Assembly: GCA_035479015.1 (NCBI GenBank)
Contig: DATIJC010000020.1
Coordinates: 4,365 to 68,364, forward strand
Direction: 5' to 3'
Source: Patescibacteria group bacterium
GTDB lineage: Bacteria > Patescibacteriota > Microgenomatia > UBA1400 > UBA12028
DNA: 64,000 bases
The position numbers and the translations under genes were made by a program. Positions 1 to 11,271 of the stretch are shown here, piece after piece. How positions within the stretch are numbered: position 1 is the first letter of the stretch; each line of letters opens with the position of its first letter. Under the pieces are notes generated by a model that saw only the letters and a list, made by a program, of their open reading frames with translations, had not been told where the DNA came from and searched no databases.

Positions 1-135
1 GTACGGCCTAGATGAGAGCGCCTGTTCTTGAGCTCTGCGCATCTTACTGGCTGCCACCATTTCCATCGCCTTGGTAATCTTGGCGATGTTGGTCGCTGAC
101 TTTATTCTGGATTTAATCAGTCTTGCTTGCGCCAT
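1..135 (-). CDS. atpG: ATP synthase F1 gamma subunit, N-terminal part only (gene runs off window start)
   Basis: Reverse-complement of 1-135 translates from ATG at 135 as [45 protein letters not shown], matching the canonical AtpG N-terminus ([14 protein letters not shown]). Not in the ORF track because it is truncated by the window edge. Confidence 0.8.
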
Positions 136-424
136 CAGAATCTCTCCGAATTGTTTTTGCTAGTATATTGTCAATAACCTCATAGCCAGGCGTTATTACA
201 GATCGAATTCCGCCGTGGTGGGCCGCCCTACTAACTACCTCAATGAGTGTTGCACTCGGTAAGTCAAAATAGTTGTTTCTCTTTGCAAACAGGTACCCTA
301 CATGTAGTAAAACTAATATTGGATCATCCGTGGTCAGACGATCCAGATCAAGCTCTTGCTGTCCTGTTACGACTTCACCATTAATCACCAGTTCAATTTC
401 AAAACTTGTCATACGCCTTGTCAT
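113..424 (-). CDS. hypothetical small protein (103 aa, possibly starting at second Met, codon 5) lying between atpA and atpG
   Basis: Open frame directly downstream of hairpin-doublet element copy 1. It overlaps the atpG start by 23 nt in another frame. No motif recognised. Confidence 0.35.
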
Positions 425-513: not shown

Positions 514-2016
514 CTATTCCTGTTCGATCTGTAGATCTTTGTGCAATTCATTGAATTTTTCGATCAAATTTTTCAAATCTTTTTCAATGTCTTCAGTTAA
601 TTTTTGTTCTTTCAAAATCGCGTCATAAACTTTCTTGCCACTTGTATCCATATATTCAAGGAAAAGCTCTTCCCATTTGCCGACATTTTCTTTTTTAACT
701 GTGTCAATGTGGCCACGGGTACCAGCATAAATCACAGCAATCTGCTCGGTGACTTCCATGGGTCTATCCCAAGCTTGTTTCAAAAGTTCGGTGAGCCGTT
801 GTCCCCGGTCAATGCGTGCTTTAGTCTTGGCATCCAAGTCACTGGAGAACTGTGCAAAGGCTTCAAGCTCGCGGAATTGTGCGAGATCTAGTTTCATAGT
901 GCCGGCAACTTGTTTCATTGCTTTGATTTGTGCGCTGCCACCCACACGTGAGACGGAAAGTCCTACGTTAATAGCTGGTTTGATTCCGGCGTTAAATAGG
1001 CCTGATTCCAAATAAATTTGACCATCTGTGATGGAGATGACATTGGTCGGAATGTATGCTGAGACGTCATTTGCCTGTGTCTCGATGATCGGCAATGCGG
1101 TGATGGATCCACCACCATGCTTTTCATCCAAACGGCACGATCTCTCAAGTAGTCGGCTGTGCAAGTAGAAAACATCCCCCGGATACGCTTCGCGGCCAGA
1201 GGGGCGCCGGAGTAGCAGTGAGATCTCACGGTAAGCAACGGCATGTTTAGACAGATCATCGTATACGATCAAAACATCTTTCCCTTTGTCCATGAAATAC
1301 TCAGCGATAGAGGATCCAGCGTAAGGAGCCAAGTACTGCATAGAAGCAGGATCTGATGCACTGGCGTTTAGTACCACGGTGTACTCAGTTGCACCAAAGT
1401 GCTCAAGTTGCGCCATGGTTTGGGCCAGATACGCTTCTTTTTGACCGACGGCGACATATACACAGATGACATTCTTGCCTTTTTGGTTGACGATGGTGGT
1501 GAGAGCAATTGCGGATTTACCGGTACCACGGTCACCAATGATGAGTTCGCGCTGACCACGTCCGATCGGGATCATAGCGTCAACCGCTTTAATACCAGTC
1601 TGAAGTGGCACGGTCACGGATTTACGTGACATGACGCCGGGGGCTATTTTTTCCAACGGTTCCCACTTCTCTATTTCAAAAGCTGGTTTGCCATCGAGAG
1701 TCTTTCCCAATGTATTGACCACACGACCCAGGATTCCATCACCCACACCCACAGACATGATGCGTCCGGTGGTGCGTACGTCCTGGCCGGCAGTAATACC
1801 TTTTCCATCAGCGAGCAGAATAACGCCGATTTCAGTTTTACCTAAGTTGAGCGCCAATCCTTCCTGACCGTTGGAAAATTCGACAATTTCTCCCATCATG
1901 ACATCAGAAAGCCCGGAGACTTTGGCGATTCCGTCACCAAATGTCAGTACTTTGCCAATAGAAACTGGCTTGTTGCTAAACTCAATGGTTGAAATGGAAT
2001 CTAAGAGTGATTTCAT
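514..2016 (-). CDS. atpA: ATP synthase F1 alpha subunit
   Basis: 500 aa with Walker A GDRGTGKS and conserved alpha-subunit blocks along its length. Confidence 0.95.
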
Positions 2017-2018
2017 AA

Positions 2019-2231
2019 TTACAAAAGTTTCTCAATTTGTGACAAGCGTCCGCGCACTGATAAATCAATACGCTCTGATCCGTTTATTGTGACTCGTAGT
2101 CCACCGATCAGATCGTTGTCGACCTTAAAATCAGCAGAAATATCATTGCCAAATTTCTTATTCAAGACTGCAAGGATCTTTTCTTCTTGTTCTTTTTCTA
2201 GTTTTACGGCTGATTCAATTAATATGTTCAT
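2019..2231 (-). CDS. atpH: ATP synthase delta subunit, C-terminal domain fragment (70 aa)
   Basis: ...[37 protein letters not shown] matches the delta C-terminus (compare E. coli VIDGSVRGRLERL). A TGA stop lies in-frame immediately upstream. Confidence 0.7.
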
Positions 2232-2485
2232 AAAACTTCATCTCTTATGCGCCTTGCAAGCACTCTTGCTTGGTCGGTTCCAACCCGGTTTTCTAAAGTG
2301 TACCAATTCTCTATCAGAGGTGTAGCGCACTGCATACCTCGGCGGAAGAAATGTATAAGTGACAGTACTAACGAGACAATTATTCTTTGTTCGCCTGGAT
2401 CTATCGTCACAGATTCCACTCTTCTTCTAACTCGCTGCAGCTCTTCCACTGCATCTCTTGGTCCAATAAATACATCTTGAAGCAT
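2228..2485 (-). CDS. atpH: ATP synthase delta subunit, N-terminal domain fragment (85 aa); its stop overlaps the start of the C-terminal fragment in an ATGA arrangement
   Basis: Position is between atpF and atpA. DAVEELQRV and DPGEQRIIVSLVL resemble the delta N-domain (LDAVEEEL, NPSVSAEEKKALL). Frame is -1 relative to 2019-2231. Confidence 0.5.
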   Translation of the reverse strand: MLQDVFIGPRDAVEELQRVRRRVESVTIDPGEQRIIVSLVLSLIHFFRRGMQCATPLIENWYTLENRVGTDQARVLARRIRDEVL

Positions 2486-3235: not shown

Positions 3236-3997
3236 TTAATGTTCTTCCCCACCATGACCTACAGTAGCCAGGTTGAAAAAGACAAGTGAAAGCATAGCGA
3301 ATACCAGTGCTTGAATGACGCCTACAAACAATTCCAGACCATAAAACGGCATAGGAATAATTACAGGCACAAGGAATGTCATCACAGCAAGCAGCACTTC
3401 TCCGGCGAAAACGTTACCAAATAAACGGAAACCGAACGACATCACCTTTGCTAACTCCAGGATAAACTCCAAGATTCCCACAAATGCGTTCATTGGGTTT
3501 GAAAAATTAAAATATTTTTTTAAATAAGATAGCCCTAGTGCGCTCAGGCCAAAATATTGAGTTACCACGACACTCACAAGTGCGAGCGCAATAGTTGTAT
3601 TAAGGTCTGCGGTGCCCGCCCGCATATACGGAACAAATTCACTTACTCCTTCTTTGATTTCACGGAAACCGATCGCACCAACTCCAGGGAGTAAGCCAAA
3701 CCAGTTATTGAACAAAATGAAAAGGAAGAATGTCGCAATGAGTGGAAAAAAAAGAGCAGTCTTTTGACGACTGCCGGTGATATCGAGCGTTAAGTTGTAG
3801 AGACTCTCAATAATCATTTCCATCATTGCTTGAAAGCGGCTGGGTTTACCCTTTGCTTTCAGTTTCGCATGGACGGTGAGAGCCAAAATGACAAGAAGTA
3901 CGGAAACGACCAGACTAGTAAAGATAGAATTGCTTACAGCAAGCGGACCCACATGGGCAATTGTTTCGGCGGAGATCGAGATATGTAATGCGGACAT
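3236..3997 (-). CDS. atpB: ATP synthase Fo a subunit. The start is probably Met25 of the track ORF (ATG at 3997), because a promoter-like site lies inside the 24-codon upstream extension.
   Basis: GNVFAGEVLL motif, multi-TM protein, first gene of the operon. Confidence 0.85.
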   Translation of the reverse strand: MSALHISISAETIAHVGPLAVSNSIFTSLVVSVLLVILALTVHAKLKAKGKPSRFQAMMEMIIESLYNLTLDITGSRQKTALFFPLIATFFLFILFNNWFGLLPGVGAIGFREIKEGVSEFVPYMRAGTADLNTTIALALVSVVVTQYFGLSALGLSYLKKYFNFSNPMNAFVGILEFILELAKVMSFGFRLFGNVFAGEVLLAVMTFLVPVIIPMPFYGLELFVGVIQALVFAMLSLVFFNLATVGHGGEEH

Positions 3998-4128: not shown

Positions 4129-5235
4129 ATGCCTCTCAGAGCCCGTGCCGTCTATCTTGCCCTCGCCAGCACGCTGCTCTTTTCAGCGTGTACGCAAAAC
4201 GGTCAAGTAGCTACGCTGGAACAAAAACCTTCGCTCCTGCAAGCATTGATCTCCACCGCCACGAAATCAGGTGCAACTCCAGTTCCAGAAAAATTACCTG
4301 CATACAAGAGTCCAGGACGTGAGTTTTCATTACCAGGTGCTAAATGGGTGCCTCAGAGTTACAACAACTGCGCGCCTGCCACTACATCTATGATCCTTCA
4401 GTACTTTGGTCATAGTGTCAGTCAAGTTGAGACCAAACAGGCTTTGCGAACTACCTCAGGTGATAAAAATGTATTTACTCCGGAAATTCAAACATATTTA
4501 AAAAATACCTATAACTTAGAGTCCAAGCTTGGATTTGGGGGCGATTTGCAAATGCTTAAAACGTTGTTTACGAACGGTTTTTATGTGATGGTAGAAGATT
4601 GGTTACATCCTGGTGAAGACATCGGACATAATACAATTATCCGGGGATTTGATGACGATAGGCAAGTGGTGATTTCCGATGACTCATTTATTGGCGCAGG
4701 AGTCACTTTTCCCTACGATGTTTTCGTAAATAATCAATGGAAGGCCTTTAACCGCGAATACTTGATCGTCTATACCAAGGATAAAGAGCCTCTGCTCAAA
4801 GCAATACTTGCCAGCCGCTTTGATGACAAGGCCATGTGGCAGCATGCGATCGATATCAATACGAGTGAGACAAAGAGTGCTCCAAACGATATGTATGCGT
4901 GGTTTAATCTCGGCAGTAGTTATTATGGGGCGGGAAGTTTCTCACAAGCAAAAACTGCCTTTGATAAAGCGAAAGCTATCGGGTGGCCCCGTCGTATGTT
5001 GTGGTACCAAATCCAGCCGATTCAAACTTACAACAAGGTTGGTGAATATCAAAAAGCGCTTGATTTAATTGCCGAAGGCCTGGCTGGTAATCAAGAATTT
5101 GCGGAGTTGCATTATGAGGCAGCTGTTGCCTATAAAGGACTTGGTCAGCTTGACCGAGCGCGTAGCGAAGTTCAATTAGCTCTTAGCTTTGCTCCCAAAT
5201 ATGCACCAGCGCTAGTTTTATCAAAACAGCTCTAA
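4129..5235 (+). CDS. lipoprotein with a peptidase C39-like (papain-fold) domain and C-terminal TPR repeats
   Basis: Lipobox LLFSAC. The motif Q..NNCAPATTSMILQYFGH matches the C39-like Cys block. TPR-like helices AWFNLGSSYYGAGSFSQAKTAFDKA and YEAAVAYKGLGQLDRARSEVQLAL. Confidence 0.65.
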   Translation: MPLRARAVYLALASTLLFSACTQNGQVATLEQKPSLLQALISTATKSGATPVPEKLPAYKSPGREFSLPGAKWVPQSYNNCAPATTSMILQYFGHSVSQVETKQALRTTSGDKNVFTPEIQTYLKNTYNLESKLGFGGDLQMLKTLFTNGFYVMVEDWLHPGEDIGHNTIIRGFDDDRQVVISDDSFIGAGVTFPYDVFVNNQWKAFNREYLIVYTKDKEPLLKAILASRFDDKAMWQHAIDINTSETKSAPNDMYAWFNLGSSYYGAGSFSQAKTAFDKAKAIGWPRRMLWYQIQPIQTYNKVGEYQKALDLIAEGLAGNQEFAELHYEAAVAYKGLGQLDRARSEVQLALSFAPKYAPALVLSKQL

Positions 5236-5489
5236 TTTTGAATAATTCTTTCTAAAAAAGAAGTAAGTTCGATATCTACGCCAGTTCCCCGCTCTTGGCG
5301 GGCGACATACAGCATGTGGATTTGGCCGTTCTTGATACTGCCCACTCCCACAATCTTCTTGCCGATCTTGGCTACATAGATATTTTCGCGTCCGGCAAAC
5401 CATAACACATTGGGGACATTGTATTCAGGTGTGCCGATGAGGCTTGATACAGCCTCGGCGTCTTCCAGCTCAAATGCACGTATTTTCAT
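5232..5489 (-). CDS. short GNAT-like acetyltransferase domain protein (85 aa)
   Basis: MKIRAFELEDAEAVSSLI...GVGSI...HMLYVARQERGTGVD resembles GNAT motif A. It is unusually short. Confidence 0.35.
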   Translation of the reverse strand: MKIRAFELEDAEAVSSLIGTPEYNVPNVLWFAGRENIYVAKIGKKIVGVGSIKNGQIHMLYVARQERGTGVDIELTSFLERIIQN

Positions 5490-7349: not shown

Positions 7350-7982
7350 TTAGTCACCTACAGTGAAATAGGCATAGGGAGTATTGCTACTAGCTCGCGA
7401 TGATCTCCATGCAACCGCGTCTGTACTGCCATCTTTAACGATAACAGTCAAGATGCCACTGTTATATGCACAGGCATTGCTAATGCTATCAAGTAGGCTA
7501 AAAGTTGTCCAATCATTTACAGAATCTTCCTGCGTAGACAGAGTCGGATAATCTGTCAGTAGTATTGGATTGCTATTTATTGTTCTAATTGCTGGCATGT
7601 TGTTCCAAGTAACGCCAGTCTCTGTCCATGTTGAAGTTTCACCCAACCAAGCATTGTGTCCACCATCTGAAACTGCATCAACTTTCATGTACATACTGCC
7701 GCCTGGAGTTCCTACATACTGCGTACATGGATTATTTCCATCCGTATCTACTGCGCTTGTCAAATCGAATTTCAGAAGAGAATAATTTTGTTCAGTATCA
7801 TTCTGCGACCAAAGCCGAACTGAGGTACCATAGTTAGTATTTGGATGCGCACTAGACACGTACGTATCGGCAATTGGATATATTGGGCCCACCGATTGGT
7901 CCAATGCCTGTACCAGTCCTGGCGTCATTGCAAATGCAAGCGCAGAAATCGTCGCTGCTATCGAATACTTTTTACCAATCAT
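7350..7982 (-). CDS. secreted protein, DNRLRE/CBM96-like domain, paralog 1
   Basis: Signal peptide. PIADTYVSSAHPNTNYG...LLKFDL...ETSTWTETGVTWNNMP is the hallmark pattern of that family. This is recalled knowledge, not a search result. Confidence 0.6.
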   Translation of the reverse strand: MIGKKYSIAATISALAFAMTPGLVQALDQSVGPIYPIADTYVSSAHPNTNYGTSVRLWSQNDTEQNYSLLKFDLTSAVDTDGNNPCTQYVGTPGGSMYMKVDAVSDGGHNAWLGETSTWTETGVTWNNMPAIRTINSNPILLTDYPTLSTQEDSVNDWTTFSLLDSISNACAYNSGILTVIVKDGSTDAVAWRSSRASSNTPYAYFTVGD

Positions 7983-8158: not shown

Positions 8159-8797
8159 TTAGTTTCCTACGTCAAAATATGCATACGGTTTTTCGCTCGA
8201 TGCATCATTTGACTTCCAGGCTATTGCATTCGCTCCGCCATCCTTGACGATCATGGTCAAAATCCCACTGTTATAGGTACATGCACTAGTAAAATCACCT
8301 GACAGGGCTATGTGAGTCCAGTCATTGACAGAGTCTTCTGATGTGGAGGCAGTCGGATTGTCTGAAAGAAGTACTGGACTACCGTCATTTGAAGGGTAGT
8401 CATAGTTACGCACGGCTGGCATGTTATTGCACGTTACTCCTGATTCAGTCCACGTAGAAGTCTCGCCAAGATACACTTGATGTCCCCCATTCGATACTTC
8501 GTCCACTTTCATAACGAGCTCTCCATCAGAACCACCATTGGTGCAGGGAGTGGCACTAGTTCCAGGTTTAATAACCTGAGTTAGATCAAATTTCAAAATT
8601 GAGTAGTTTTGCTCGGTATCATTTTGTACCCAAAGCCTCGACGAAGTACCATAATTGGTACTGGGGTGCGCGCTCGACACATAGGTTGCCGCAGTTGGAT
8701 ACACTGGCCCTACACTAGTAGCCATCGCTAAACTAGGCACCGCCAAGAATGAAAAGGCAGATACTGTTAGCACACATAGTTTCGTTTTACTGCTCAT
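8159..8797 (-). CDS. secreted protein, DNRLRE/CBM96-like domain, paralog 2 (a tandem duplicate of 7350-7982)
   Basis: Roughly 55-60 percent identical to paralog 1 across its full length. Signal peptide present. Confidence 0.6.
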   Translation of the reverse strand: MSSKTKLCVLTVSAFSFLAVPSLAMATSVGPVYPTAATYVSSAHPSTNYGTSSRLWVQNDTEQNYSILKFDLTQVIKPGTSATPCTNGGSDGELVMKVDEVSNGGHQVYLGETSTWTESGVTCNNMPAVRNYDYPSNDGSPVLLSDNPTASTSEDSVNDWTHIALSGDFTSACTYNSGILTMIVKDGGANAIAWKSNDASSEKPYAYFDVGN

Positions 8798-8957: not shown

Positions 8958-9317
8958 ATGAATACAGTTTCTCTTGGGCCCGATAACATCATCATGGCGG
9001 CGTATGTCGGTGACCAAACGGAAGATACCATCACCCAAACGTGGAAAGAGACCATCCCAATGGTCAAAGAGTTGCGGGACAAAGGTCTACCCATAAAAGT
9101 TATTCTCGATCTCTCGAAACTTACAGGTCAAAATTCCAGCGCCAGAAGAGCTGCCAGAGATGTGCTGTTGCAGTTAGCTCCAGACAAAATGGCAGTGATC
9201 GGCGCCAATACCTTCATCCGCTACCTTGCAGGATTTATCTTTAAAGCCACCAATATGGAGAAAAATATTAAACAATTTCCTGAAATGAAGGATGCAGCGG
9301 CATGGATAAACTCATAG
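8958..9317 (+). CDS. STAS-like (anti-sigma-antagonist fold) small protein, translationally coupled to the kinase
   Basis: VILDLSKLTGQNSSARRAARDVLLQL fits the STAS pattern loosely. It overlaps the downstream kinase gene by 16 nt. Confidence 0.4.
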   Translation: MNTVSLGPDNIIMAAYVGDQTEDTITQTWKETIPMVKELRDKGLPIKVILDLSKLTGQNSSARRAARDVLLQLAPDKMAVIGANTFIRYLAGFIFKATNMEKNIKQFPEMKDAAAWINS

Positions 9318-10567
9318 AACTGTTAAACCCAATTTTTGCCGATGCTACGGTCGGTGAATTTACCAAGGACGTGGATCTTTCCCAAGTGGAGCCGCAATAT
9401 TTAGAGCTCTGTTCTGGAATACAAATCATCATTGACGTGATCCGGGAAAAAATAGCAGATCTTGAGCGTCTTAATTCTGAATTGCTTCAGGAAAGTGTGG
9501 AGCGGCAAGCAATACTTGATAGCATTGGTGAAGGCGTAGCCGTACTCAATGAACATGGTATTGTGTTATTTTTAAACCCTGTTGGTCAGCAGATTTTGGG
9601 TTGGAGTGCCAGTGAGATCGAAGGAAAGCCATGGGTCACTACAGTACCGCTTGAATATGAAAATGGTACGGAGATAGACACAAGCAAACGTCCGTTTGAA
9701 AGTTTTACCTATAGCCAAGAAGCAGACAATTTGGCACAAGCTCTCTACTATCGGCGCAAAAATAAATCTCGCGTACCCATTCAAACAACAGTTTCTCCAG
9801 TGCTCTCTAATGGGCAAAATCACGGAACGATCATCGTCTTTAGAGACGTCTCAAAAGAATGGGAGATAGAAAAACTAAAAGAGGAATTTCTCTCGATTGC
9901 AGCACATCAATTGCGAGGACCCCTGGCTACCATGCGCTGGACAACGGAGACTCTGCTCTCCACCTATGCATCACTTCTTGACCCCGTGGTACGGGAGAAA
10001 ATTGAGTGGGTATACCACAACAACCAAGATCTCATAGGCCTCGTCAACGATATCTTAAGCATCACCAGACTCTCTAAAGGCACCATAAGCGAAGAAGCAA
10101 TTCCGACAAATGTGCGGTTACTCATAACGAAAGAAATCGATGATCTTTCACATCAAATTAAAAAGAAACATATGAATATCGATCTGCGAACTGACCAAAT
10201 CATCAGCGATGGAAAGTTTGCGCTTGATCCAAACCATTTTAAACAGGTACTGCGTAACATCATTGATAATGCGATAAAGTACGGTTTTAAAGATTCAACC
10301 ATTCAAATTTCTGCAACTTTTGACGGCTCAGGGATAACTATAGTAGTATCTGATCAAGGCATGGGAATTGCACCTAAAGAGAAAACCATGGTTTTTCACC
10401 GGTTCTTTCGTGGTAGCAATGTCATTCATTCTGGGATTAGTGGTACAGGATTGGGGCTCTATGTTGTGAAACAGTACATCGATCTGTGGAAAGGCAGCGT
10501 CAATGTGGAAAGCACGCTGAATAAAGGAACAAGCGTCACCATTCATTTACCCATACATCCGTTATAA
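9302..10567 (+). CDS. sensor histidine kinase with PAS domain (cytoplasmic)
   Basis: PAS block ILDSIGEGVAVLNEHGIVLFLNPVGQQILGW. H-box AAHQLRGPL. N, G1 and G2 boxes IIDNAIKYG, DQGMGI, GTGLGLYVV. Confidence 0.85.
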   Translation: MDKLIELLNPIFADATVGEFTKDVDLSQVEPQYLELCSGIQIIIDVIREKIADLERLNSELLQESVERQAILDSIGEGVAVLNEHGIVLFLNPVGQQILGWSASEIEGKPWVTTVPLEYENGTEIDTSKRPFESFTYSQEADNLAQALYYRRKNKSRVPIQTTVSPVLSNGQNHGTIIVFRDVSKEWEIEKLKEEFLSIAAHQLRGPLATMRWTTETLLSTYASLLDPVVREKIEWVYHNNQDLIGLVNDILSITRLSKGTISEEAIPTNVRLLITKEIDDLSHQIKKKHMNIDLRTDQIISDGKFALDPNHFKQVLRNIIDNAIKYGFKDSTIQISATFDGSGITIVVSDQGMGIAPKEKTMVFHRFFRGSNVIHSGISGTGLGLYVVKQYIDLWKGSVNVESTLNKGTSVTIHLPIHPL

Positions 10568-10941: not shown

Positions 10942-11248
10942 TCTTCATGGCATTCTTGCCGGCGCGGCCGCGCATGTAGTACAGTTTGCCACGGCGAACG
11001 TCACCCTTGGTAACTATCGCCAGATCAGCAATAGCCGGACCATCCAGAGGGAGGATGCGTTCGACACCTACACCAGAAGCAATTTTGCGCAGTGTGATGG
11101 CCTTACCGCTCTCACGATTGGAGACGGCGATGACTATGCCCTCGAATGCCTGTTGGCGGGTTTTCTCGCCTTCAGTCACGTTGAGCATCGCCTTAACAGT
11201 GTCTCCCACGGAGTATTCGACGTTTTTATATGTAAAGTACTTGGCCAT
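10907..11248 (-). CDS. rplS: 50S ribosomal protein L19
   Basis: GDTVKAML...QAFEGIVIAVSNR...KLYYMRGRAGK matches L19. Confidence 0.9.
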   Translation of the reverse strand: MAKYFTYKNVEYSVGDTVKAMLNVTEGEKTRQQAFEGIVIAVSNRESGKAITLRKIASGVGVERILPLDGPAIADLAIVTKGDVRRGKLYYMRGRAGKNAMKIKKLDVASPQQ

Positions 11249-11271
11249 AGAGAGGGTATTTTATCACATTC

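Follow-up and report, generated by a model that had tools for sequence, protein, structure and literature searches.

A C-domain-only ATP synthase delta subunit and an upstream orphan reading frame in the atp operon of a Patescibacteria clade

The delta gene (atpH) in the atp operon studied here encodes a protein of 70 aa, which carries the C-terminal b-binding domain of the subunit. To our knowledge, all F-type ATP synthases characterised so far rely on the N-domain of delta to fix the stator stalk to the catalytic head. We hold with moderate confidence that the 70-aa ORF is the entire delta, whose alpha-binding N-terminal helical domain would have been lost before this Patescibacteria clade diversified, and that the 85-aa ORF immediately upstream (ORF85) is a separate, lineage-specific orphan. 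A sequence-only reading of the same DNA had taken the two ORFs for the N-domain and C-domain halves of a split atpH. The data do not favour this interpretation: ORF85 appears unrelated to delta, and all nine relatives compared contain only the C-domain, five of them without a full-length ORF upstream.

Results

Organisation of the atp operon

The window, which is the whole 64-kb stretch of DNA analysed here, contains an atp operon on the reverse strand. The ORF list and the gene table give the canonical order a-c-b-delta-alpha-gamma-beta-epsilon (atpBEFHAGDC). The gene atpB (subunit a, 253 aa in the NCBI gene call; PF00119) lies at positions 3236–3997, converted from 4489–5250 in the gene table of this locus (L001). 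It is followed by atpE (subunit c, 74 aa, PF00137; 2990–3214) and atpF (subunit b, 163 aa; 2489–2980), the latter identified by Pfam ATP-synt_B with an E-value of 2.7e-20. ORF85 (2228–2485) fills the spacer between atpF and atpH. The 70-aa gene (2019–2231) sits between atpF and atpA (alpha, 500 aa; 514–2016; assigned from the ORF list, the Pfam gene table and homologues), which is the standard location of delta.

ORF85 and the 70-aa ORF are in different frames, and the TGA of ORF85 overlaps the ATG of atpH (ttATGAac; overlap at 2228–2231), exactly as and where the sequence-only reading had placed them. The packing on both sides is equally tight, with 3 nt between the atpF stop and ORF85 and 2 nt between atpH and atpA, and this spacing fits a translationally coupled set of genes. 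The overlap is of the type that permits translational coupling, as was also proposed from the sequence, whereas coupling itself is a prediction. The atpH junction differs in nothing from that of ordinary ATGA-coupled gene pairs, which share the same four-base stop/start overlap. Among ORFs of at least 60 aa, the window has seven same-strand overlaps of 4 nt, some of which may involve spurious ORFs. We infer that coupling across ORF85, atpH and atpA operates: ribosomes that end one ORF would most likely restart on the next, and an open ORF85 would keep the translation of delta and alpha coupled. That atpH and atpA have no Shine-Dalgarno sequence does not point specifically to coupling, because most genes here do without one (the core is missing in 27 of the 41 long ORFs of the window). 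A promoter and terminator scan of the spacer found no motif on the gene strand.

ORF85 is not the only small ORF in the operon. A second orphan ORF (113–424, reverse strand; 99 aa in the gene call, 103 aa if taken as the longest ORF) occupies the atpA-atpG junction and belongs to no Pfam, NCBIfam or PHROG family, and an RNHCP-domain ORF lies between atpD and atpC in this genome. Among the relatives described below, five have orphan ORFs at the delta-atpA junction, and a 23S-rRNA-IVP ORF is present in the atp operon of one (L096); further variable ORFs occur in the clade at the atpA-atpG and atpG-atpD junctions. At several junctions, the atp operons of this clade collect small, variable orphan ORFs.

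The 70-aa ORF is the C-terminal domain of delta

The 70-aa ORF matches positions 105–172 of the 172 positions of PF00213 (OSCP) with an E-value of 4.8e-15 and 56.5 bits (cut-off 22.3). It also matches TIGR01145 over positions 105–172 (E 9e-13), where its 48.9 bits stay below the cut-off of 57.5 set for full-length proteins. Its PDB matches fall solely in delta C-domains, such as residues 111–172 of the E. coli subunit (5t4o_L). We further built HMMs of the N-domain, the C-domain and the full-length delta from 51 full-length deltas adjoining atpA in related loci. The C-domain HMM gives 64.7 bits for the 70-aa ORF, and the N-domain HMM gives about 0 bits. The protein is already labelled delta in databases, and its identification as the b-binding domain in the sequence-only reading is confirmed.

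Because the PF00213, TIGR01145 and 5t4o_L matches cover the C-domain only, the start of the 70-aa ORF coincides with the domain boundary. As the 70-aa ORF begins at profile position 105, it lacks the N-terminal helical bundle of delta/OSCP, and no N-domain-like ORF was found in any frame of the 64-kb window. The proposal that the split falls exactly at the domain boundary is therefore right for the start of the 70-aa ORF and unsupported for the ORF upstream, which does not appear to be the missing half. On sequence grounds, the C-domain places the 70-aa ORF in the delta/OSCP family, while the other defining feature of the family, the N-domain, is missing. The role of the 70-aa protein is presumably to dock onto the C-terminus of b.

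A short delta is conserved throughout the clade

The search with atpA returned about 25 proteins at 71–79% identity, some of them labelled Woesebacteria or Cerribacteria, and the next proteins were at 68% or below. Nine loci of the 71–79% group were examined (L089–L097). A search of genome contigs gave no relative above 66% atpA identity, and a metagenome scan with the C-domain alignment gave one distant locus only (L088), which holds the nearest full-length delta found (C-domain 48% identical).

In all nine relatives delta is 67–74 aa long, consists of the C-domain only and starts with Met at the same domain boundary, where the clade shares the motif M-x-[IV]-x-I-[ET]-S. The delta frame is closed upstream of this Met by a stop 1–8 codons before it (24 codons in L091). 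In a further relative from JGI (L003), delta is 86% identical and has the same Met start, and the preceding 75 nt align poorly to the window. None of the nine relatives has an unsplit full-length delta at the locus. Since every one of them carries the C-domain-only form with the same Met start, this form predates the clade.

The region upstream of delta, in contrast, is variable. A full-length ORF ahead of delta is absent in five of the nine relatives (L089, L090, L095, L096 and L097). Nothing separates atpF from delta in L097, in which the stop of atpF and the ATG of delta share an ATGA, and the gap is 7 nt in L095, 19 nt in L090 and 32 nt in L096. L089, which pairs with the window on the atpA tree, has a gap of 61 nt with a 15-codon mini-ORF that ends in ATGA on the delta start. 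The remaining four relatives (L091–L094) have ORFs of 87–99 aa between atpF and delta, and in L094 this ORF again meets atpH through an ATGA junction. Leave-one-out HMMs of the five upstream ORFs indicate that they are mutually dissimilar, with L091 and L093 alone weakly alike, and ORF85 scores −1.4 bits against the profile of the others. Delta remains 60–86% identical while these ORFs diverge almost past recognition.

The upstream ORFs of the window and of L091–L094 share the same frame relation to delta (gap = 2 mod 3). This common relation would fit one ancestral split, but on the tree it corresponds to about two independent events. The neighbour-joining atpA tree, which carries no bootstrap values, places L096 and L097, both free of inserted ORFs, deepest; on the same unbootstrapped tree, lineages without an upstream ORF separate the window from L091–L094. 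The most economical order of events would be that the N-domain was lost first and that ORF85 came into the atpF-atpH junction later. The N-terminus of alpha is about 7–15 residues shorter than in the outgroups, yet it is conserved in the clade, and something presumably still binds it.

The junction is authentic

Over the 500 nt around the junction, the contig of an NCBI MAG (GCA_964572785.1, contig CAZNEY010000002.1) and four Logan assemblies (SRR9179559, -60, -61 and -63) agree at every base. TGA is an ordinary stop in this genome, where it ends 11 of 51 long ORFs. The arrangement is real and not an assembly artefact.

The sequence-only reading had also raised a 1-nt indel, through assembly error or pseudogenisation, as the source of the two frames. 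Nothing beyond the differing frames speaks for such a recent change confined to this genome. The five assemblies agree, there is no long homopolymer at the junction, the Met start of the C-domain is conserved in the nine relatives and in L003, and the frame upstream of this Met is closed in all these loci. An intact atpH in relatives with a frameshift here alone, which would have marked a pseudogene, was not seen in any of the nine relatives compared. An indel, error or pseudogene is refuted by these data, and we regard it as extremely unlikely.

ORF85 has no detectable relation to the delta N-domain

ORF85 had been thought to resemble the N-terminal helical domain of delta, and every comparison made for this resemblance stayed at background. 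ORF85 has no OSCP match in Pfam up to an E-value of 10 and no family in Pfam, NCBIfam or PHROGs. A word-index search of 5.8 billion proteins finds only ORF85 itself, and an exhaustive phmmer search of 1.84 billion cluster representatives adds four weak matches that we judged spurious. ORF85 scores about 0 bits with each of our own HMMs (N-domain, C-domain and full-length); the 0.7 bits with the N-domain HMM are not above those of unrelated control ORFs. In hhalign against the delta alignment, ORF85 reaches a probability of 0.4%, compared with 98.7% for the 70-aa ORF as a control. The best Smith-Waterman score of ORF85 against 68 N-domains is equalled by 49% of shuffles. A sequence search of the PDB with ORF85 gave no delta match. 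When the AlphaFold2 model of ORF85 was searched with Foldseek, the PDB yielded generic helical bundles only (best E 0.7), none of the 50 PDB matches listed being a delta/OSCP chain, and a viral library yielded nothing. When all small ORFs were compared by tblastn with the window and with every locus, ORF85 showed no paralogues; it also does not align with the four-helix 23S-rRNA-IVP ORF of L096.

By eye, ORF85 contains motifs in the right order, FIGPRDAVEE resembling F-x-NP-x-x-x-EE and TLENR resembling L-x-EN-x-R, at a level without statistical support. The best local alignments of ORF85 land on the F-x-NP region of the L088 and L023 deltas. We do not claim these likenesses (AVEEL, IDP/NP, LENR), because Smith-Waterman and hhalign remain at background. 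As far as sequence and model comparisons reach, ORF85 is without detectable relation to the delta N-domain; sequence saturation could hide a true N-domain origin.

A truly split gene would mean that ORF85 is an N-domain diverged beyond recognition, which is made as a separate chain and joins the C-domain protein at the top of F1. In its favour, ORF85 lies where an N-domain would be expected, behind atpF and ahead of the C-domain ORF, the lengths add up (85 + 70 = 155 aa), the frame of ORF85 is kept open, and its model is all-helical like the N-domain. The motif likenesses, weak as they are, follow the correct order where ORF85 aligns best with the L088 and L023 deltas, in their F-x-NP region. 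An ORF of 87–99 aa at the same place and in the same relative frame in four relatives, together with the conserved alpha N-terminus, also accords with a split. However, no sequence, profile or fold test rises above background, the model has four helices rather than six, the codon usage is not gene-like, and ORF85 is not related to the ORFs that precede delta in the relatives. Moreover, five of the nine relatives, including the two deepest on the unbootstrapped tree, have no full-length upstream ORF, so a split gene would require a half that is supposedly functional to have been lost independently four or more times. We consider a split gene decidedly unlikely, and a whole delta of 70 aa with an unrelated neighbour remains our preferred reading.

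ORF85 is probably translated

Of 2000 dinucleotide shuffles of the 257-nt spacer, 10 have a frame free of stops from end to end. The long spacers of four relatives are also fully open, which is seen in 3–18 of 2000 shuffles each. AlphaFold2 in single-sequence mode predicts four helices for ORF85 with a pLDDT of 73.5 and a pTM of 0.58, in contrast to 40 and 0.18 for an antisense ORF of 77 aa used as a control. ORF85 is probably translated, as a predicted four-helix protein, because the stop-free spacer is rare in shuffles and the model is far above the antisense control.

The codon usage of ORF85 gives a log-likelihood of 0.031 bits per codon. Spurious ORFs that lie within long genes spread around a mean of −0.016 (sd 0.10), a range that includes this value, and almost every 85-codon window of a real gene scores higher (mean 0.213, sd 0.078, minimum 0.004). 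With 13 Arg and no Lys, ORF85 has a composition unusual for this genome, and three of the four Logan assemblies list no gene at this position.

These properties bear on the alternative that ORF85 makes no functional protein and is an inserted or leftover spacer, which is open for ribosome read-through to atpH and atpA or by luck. The codon usage agrees with that of spurious ORFs. The upstream ORFs also diverge extremely fast next to a delta that stays 60–86% identical, in the sister genome (L089) the position is reduced to a mini-ORF that still places an ATGA on the delta start, and other relatives manage without any such ORF. Against a mere spacer, the model is confident for an orphan when compared with the antisense control, an open frame by pure chance is unlikely at 10 in 2000, and deletion would be an easy way out if the spacer were only a burden. 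We rate a non-functional spacer as rather unlikely. Selection may act as much on the open frame, as a passage for ribosomes from atpF to atpH and atpA, as on the ORF85 protein. Our best guess is that the protein is a dispensable accessory or a neutral passenger.

Programmed −1 frameshifting, which would fuse ORF85 and the C-domain into a two-domain delta of 155 aa, is very improbable. The downstream frame is indeed −1 relative to ORF85, the same frame relation holds in five loci, and a P-site slip on U-UUA ahead of a slow UGA stop is conceivable. A −1 fusion is nevertheless unlikely because the two frames share only two codons, the C-domain frame having a TGA three codons before its ATG, and because this overlap holds no X-XXY-YYZ slippery heptamer. 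The spacer matches no Rfam family and shows no unusual RNA stability (fold z −0.84), so that no stable structure is predicted that could stimulate a shift. In L091–L093 the upstream ORF stops 2–5 nt before the ATG, and delta starts at the same Met in the relatives that have no upstream ORF.

Discussion

Comparison with other ATP synthase stalks

The canonical delta/OSCP, as in E. coli (5t4o chain L), has the same C-domain and the same place between atpF and atpA. It differs in its length of about 175–180 aa, of which about 105 residues form the N-terminal helical bundle, compared with 70 aa and no bundle here. In characterised enzymes the bundle is established to clamp the N-termini of alpha (Carbajo et al. 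2007, cited in PMC6131620).

Outside the clade, other Patescibacteria show the same trend, in which the N-domain is shrunken or lost and the C-domain is conserved. C-domain-only deltas of 71 aa (L012) and 80 aa (L019) occur beside deltas of about 130 aa with an internally deleted N-domain (L014, L017 and L021) and intermediate forms of 98 aa (L029) and 117 aa (L011). Two loci (L008 and L009) have tandem C-domain deltas of 146–148 aa, and an Uhrbacteria genome (L016) has a normal delta of 179 aa. Unlike the window, the reduced-delta loci contain no extra ORF between atpF and delta, and L008 and L009 also differ in their doubled C-domain. We also considered ORF85 as the degenerate first copy of such a tandem C-domain and rejected this, as ORF85 scores −0.9 bits with the C-domain HMM. 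Our literature search found no description of C-domain-only deltas in Patescibacteria.

The nearest functional precedent is the N-ATPase, an F-type enzyme whose stalk contains a module like the delta C-domain and no delta N-domain. The 70-aa ORF matches positions 178–243 of the 246 positions of the N-ATPase b model TIGR03321 (alt_F1F0_F0_B) with an E-value of 7e-10. The N-ATPase gene order is reportedly atpDCQRBEFAG (Dibrova et al. 2010). N-ATPases carry the module as a fusion with b and have another operon order, whereas b (163 aa) and delta (70 aa) are separate here and the order is canonical; we rejected an N-ATPase identity of the operon on these grounds. N-ATPases are described as lacking delta and having a longer b (PMC5706428). 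The b-delta fusion of mycobacteria is likewise a rearrangement of the stalk, and the 70-aa ORF matches residues 380–438 of its 445 residues (PDB 7jg5 chain d). The mycobacterial protein, however, keeps the delta N-domain and gains b, while here the N-domain is lost and delta is unfused.

Implications

With the N-domain gone, the stator would attach to F1 by some other route. The small ORFs of the atp operon, which include ORF85, the upstream and downstream ORFs of the relatives and the ORFs along atpA-atpG-atpD, might be stator accessories that replace the N-domain and tether the stalk of b and delta C-domain to the N-terminus of alpha; we think this improbable. If it were true, the head of an F-type peripheral stalk would have been rebuilt repeatedly from new proteins.

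For our preferred reading, in which the 70-aa protein is all of delta and ORF85 an orphan, a whole clade of Patescibacteria has an otherwise complete and conserved atp operon and yet a delta of about 70 residues without the N-domain. Short deltas of this kind are liable to be flagged as truncated or frameshifted during annotation, although they are the normal state of the lineage. On a small scale, the interleaved orphan ORFs illustrate how rapidly genes can turn over in nature within an operon that is essential and tightly coupled. A delta without its N-domain raises the concrete question of how torque is resisted in these enzymes.

Orphan ORFs at the junctions of the atp operon

In the gene tables of the window (and L001, the NCBI MAG contig record that contains it) and of the relatives' loci L089–L096, nearly all gene junctions of the clade's atp operons hold variable orphan ORFs, for example at the alpha/gamma, gamma/beta and delta/alpha junctions. 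Junction ORFs of this genome lie at positions 113–424 of the window (minus strand) and at 9297–9569 and 10953–11255 in the coordinates of L001. The beta-epsilon junction in the same genome carries an ORF with an RNHCP domain, and the alpha-gamma junction of L096 carries a PF05635 23S_rRNA_IVP ORF. Homologues were undetectable for most junction ORFs of the clade's atp operons, and the only related pairs among them are L093_D78/L094_D82 (59% identity) and L089_GD120/L095_GD328.

The former pair is a conserved ORF at the delta-atpA junction (L093, 2261–2497; L094, 2249–2497), which begins ..NELAR(E/K)YV.. and bears a weak likeness to helix 1 of delta (I-A-R-R-Y-A). The Smith-Waterman score of L094_D82 is higher than those of all 200 shuffles, but hhalign gave only 1–4%. 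The N-terminal tail of alpha is conserved in the clade as M-K-x-x-[FL]-[DE]-x-I-x-T-x-x-F (window 1960–2016, minus strand; L089–L097), and is approximately 7–15 residues shorter than in the outgroups, with or without an upstream ORF.

Between the atpA stop and the next ORF, the window contains an imperfect inverted repeat of 39 nt (419–457 and 472–510; 82% complementary, 14-nt loop), both arms of which form small hairpins themselves. Elsewhere in the window, two neighbouring paralogous secreted proteins of approximately 210 aa are encoded on the minus strand (7350–7982 and 8159–8797) and are assigned to PF24517 (CBM96) in the gene table.

Variation of delta among Patescibacteria

The delta of the closest relative, the JGI locus L003 (76–270; 86% identical), stops six codons early at a premature TAA, although the six codons beyond it (QIEKLL, followed by a stop) remain conserved. 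Delta is 146–148 aa long in L008 (908–1348) and L009 (2233–2679), the two that come nearest among the species-representative genomes of the GTDB scan (66% and 63% identity in atpA). It consists there of a tandem pair of C-terminal domains without the N-domain, with two matches to the C-domain HMM in each. Many Patescibacteria deltas have an internal deletion of approximately 45 residues but retain helix 1 and the last helices of the N-domain. In the deltas of approximately 130 aa of L014, L017, L021, L036 and L010, the N-domain HMM matches only profile positions 3–23 and about 61–105.
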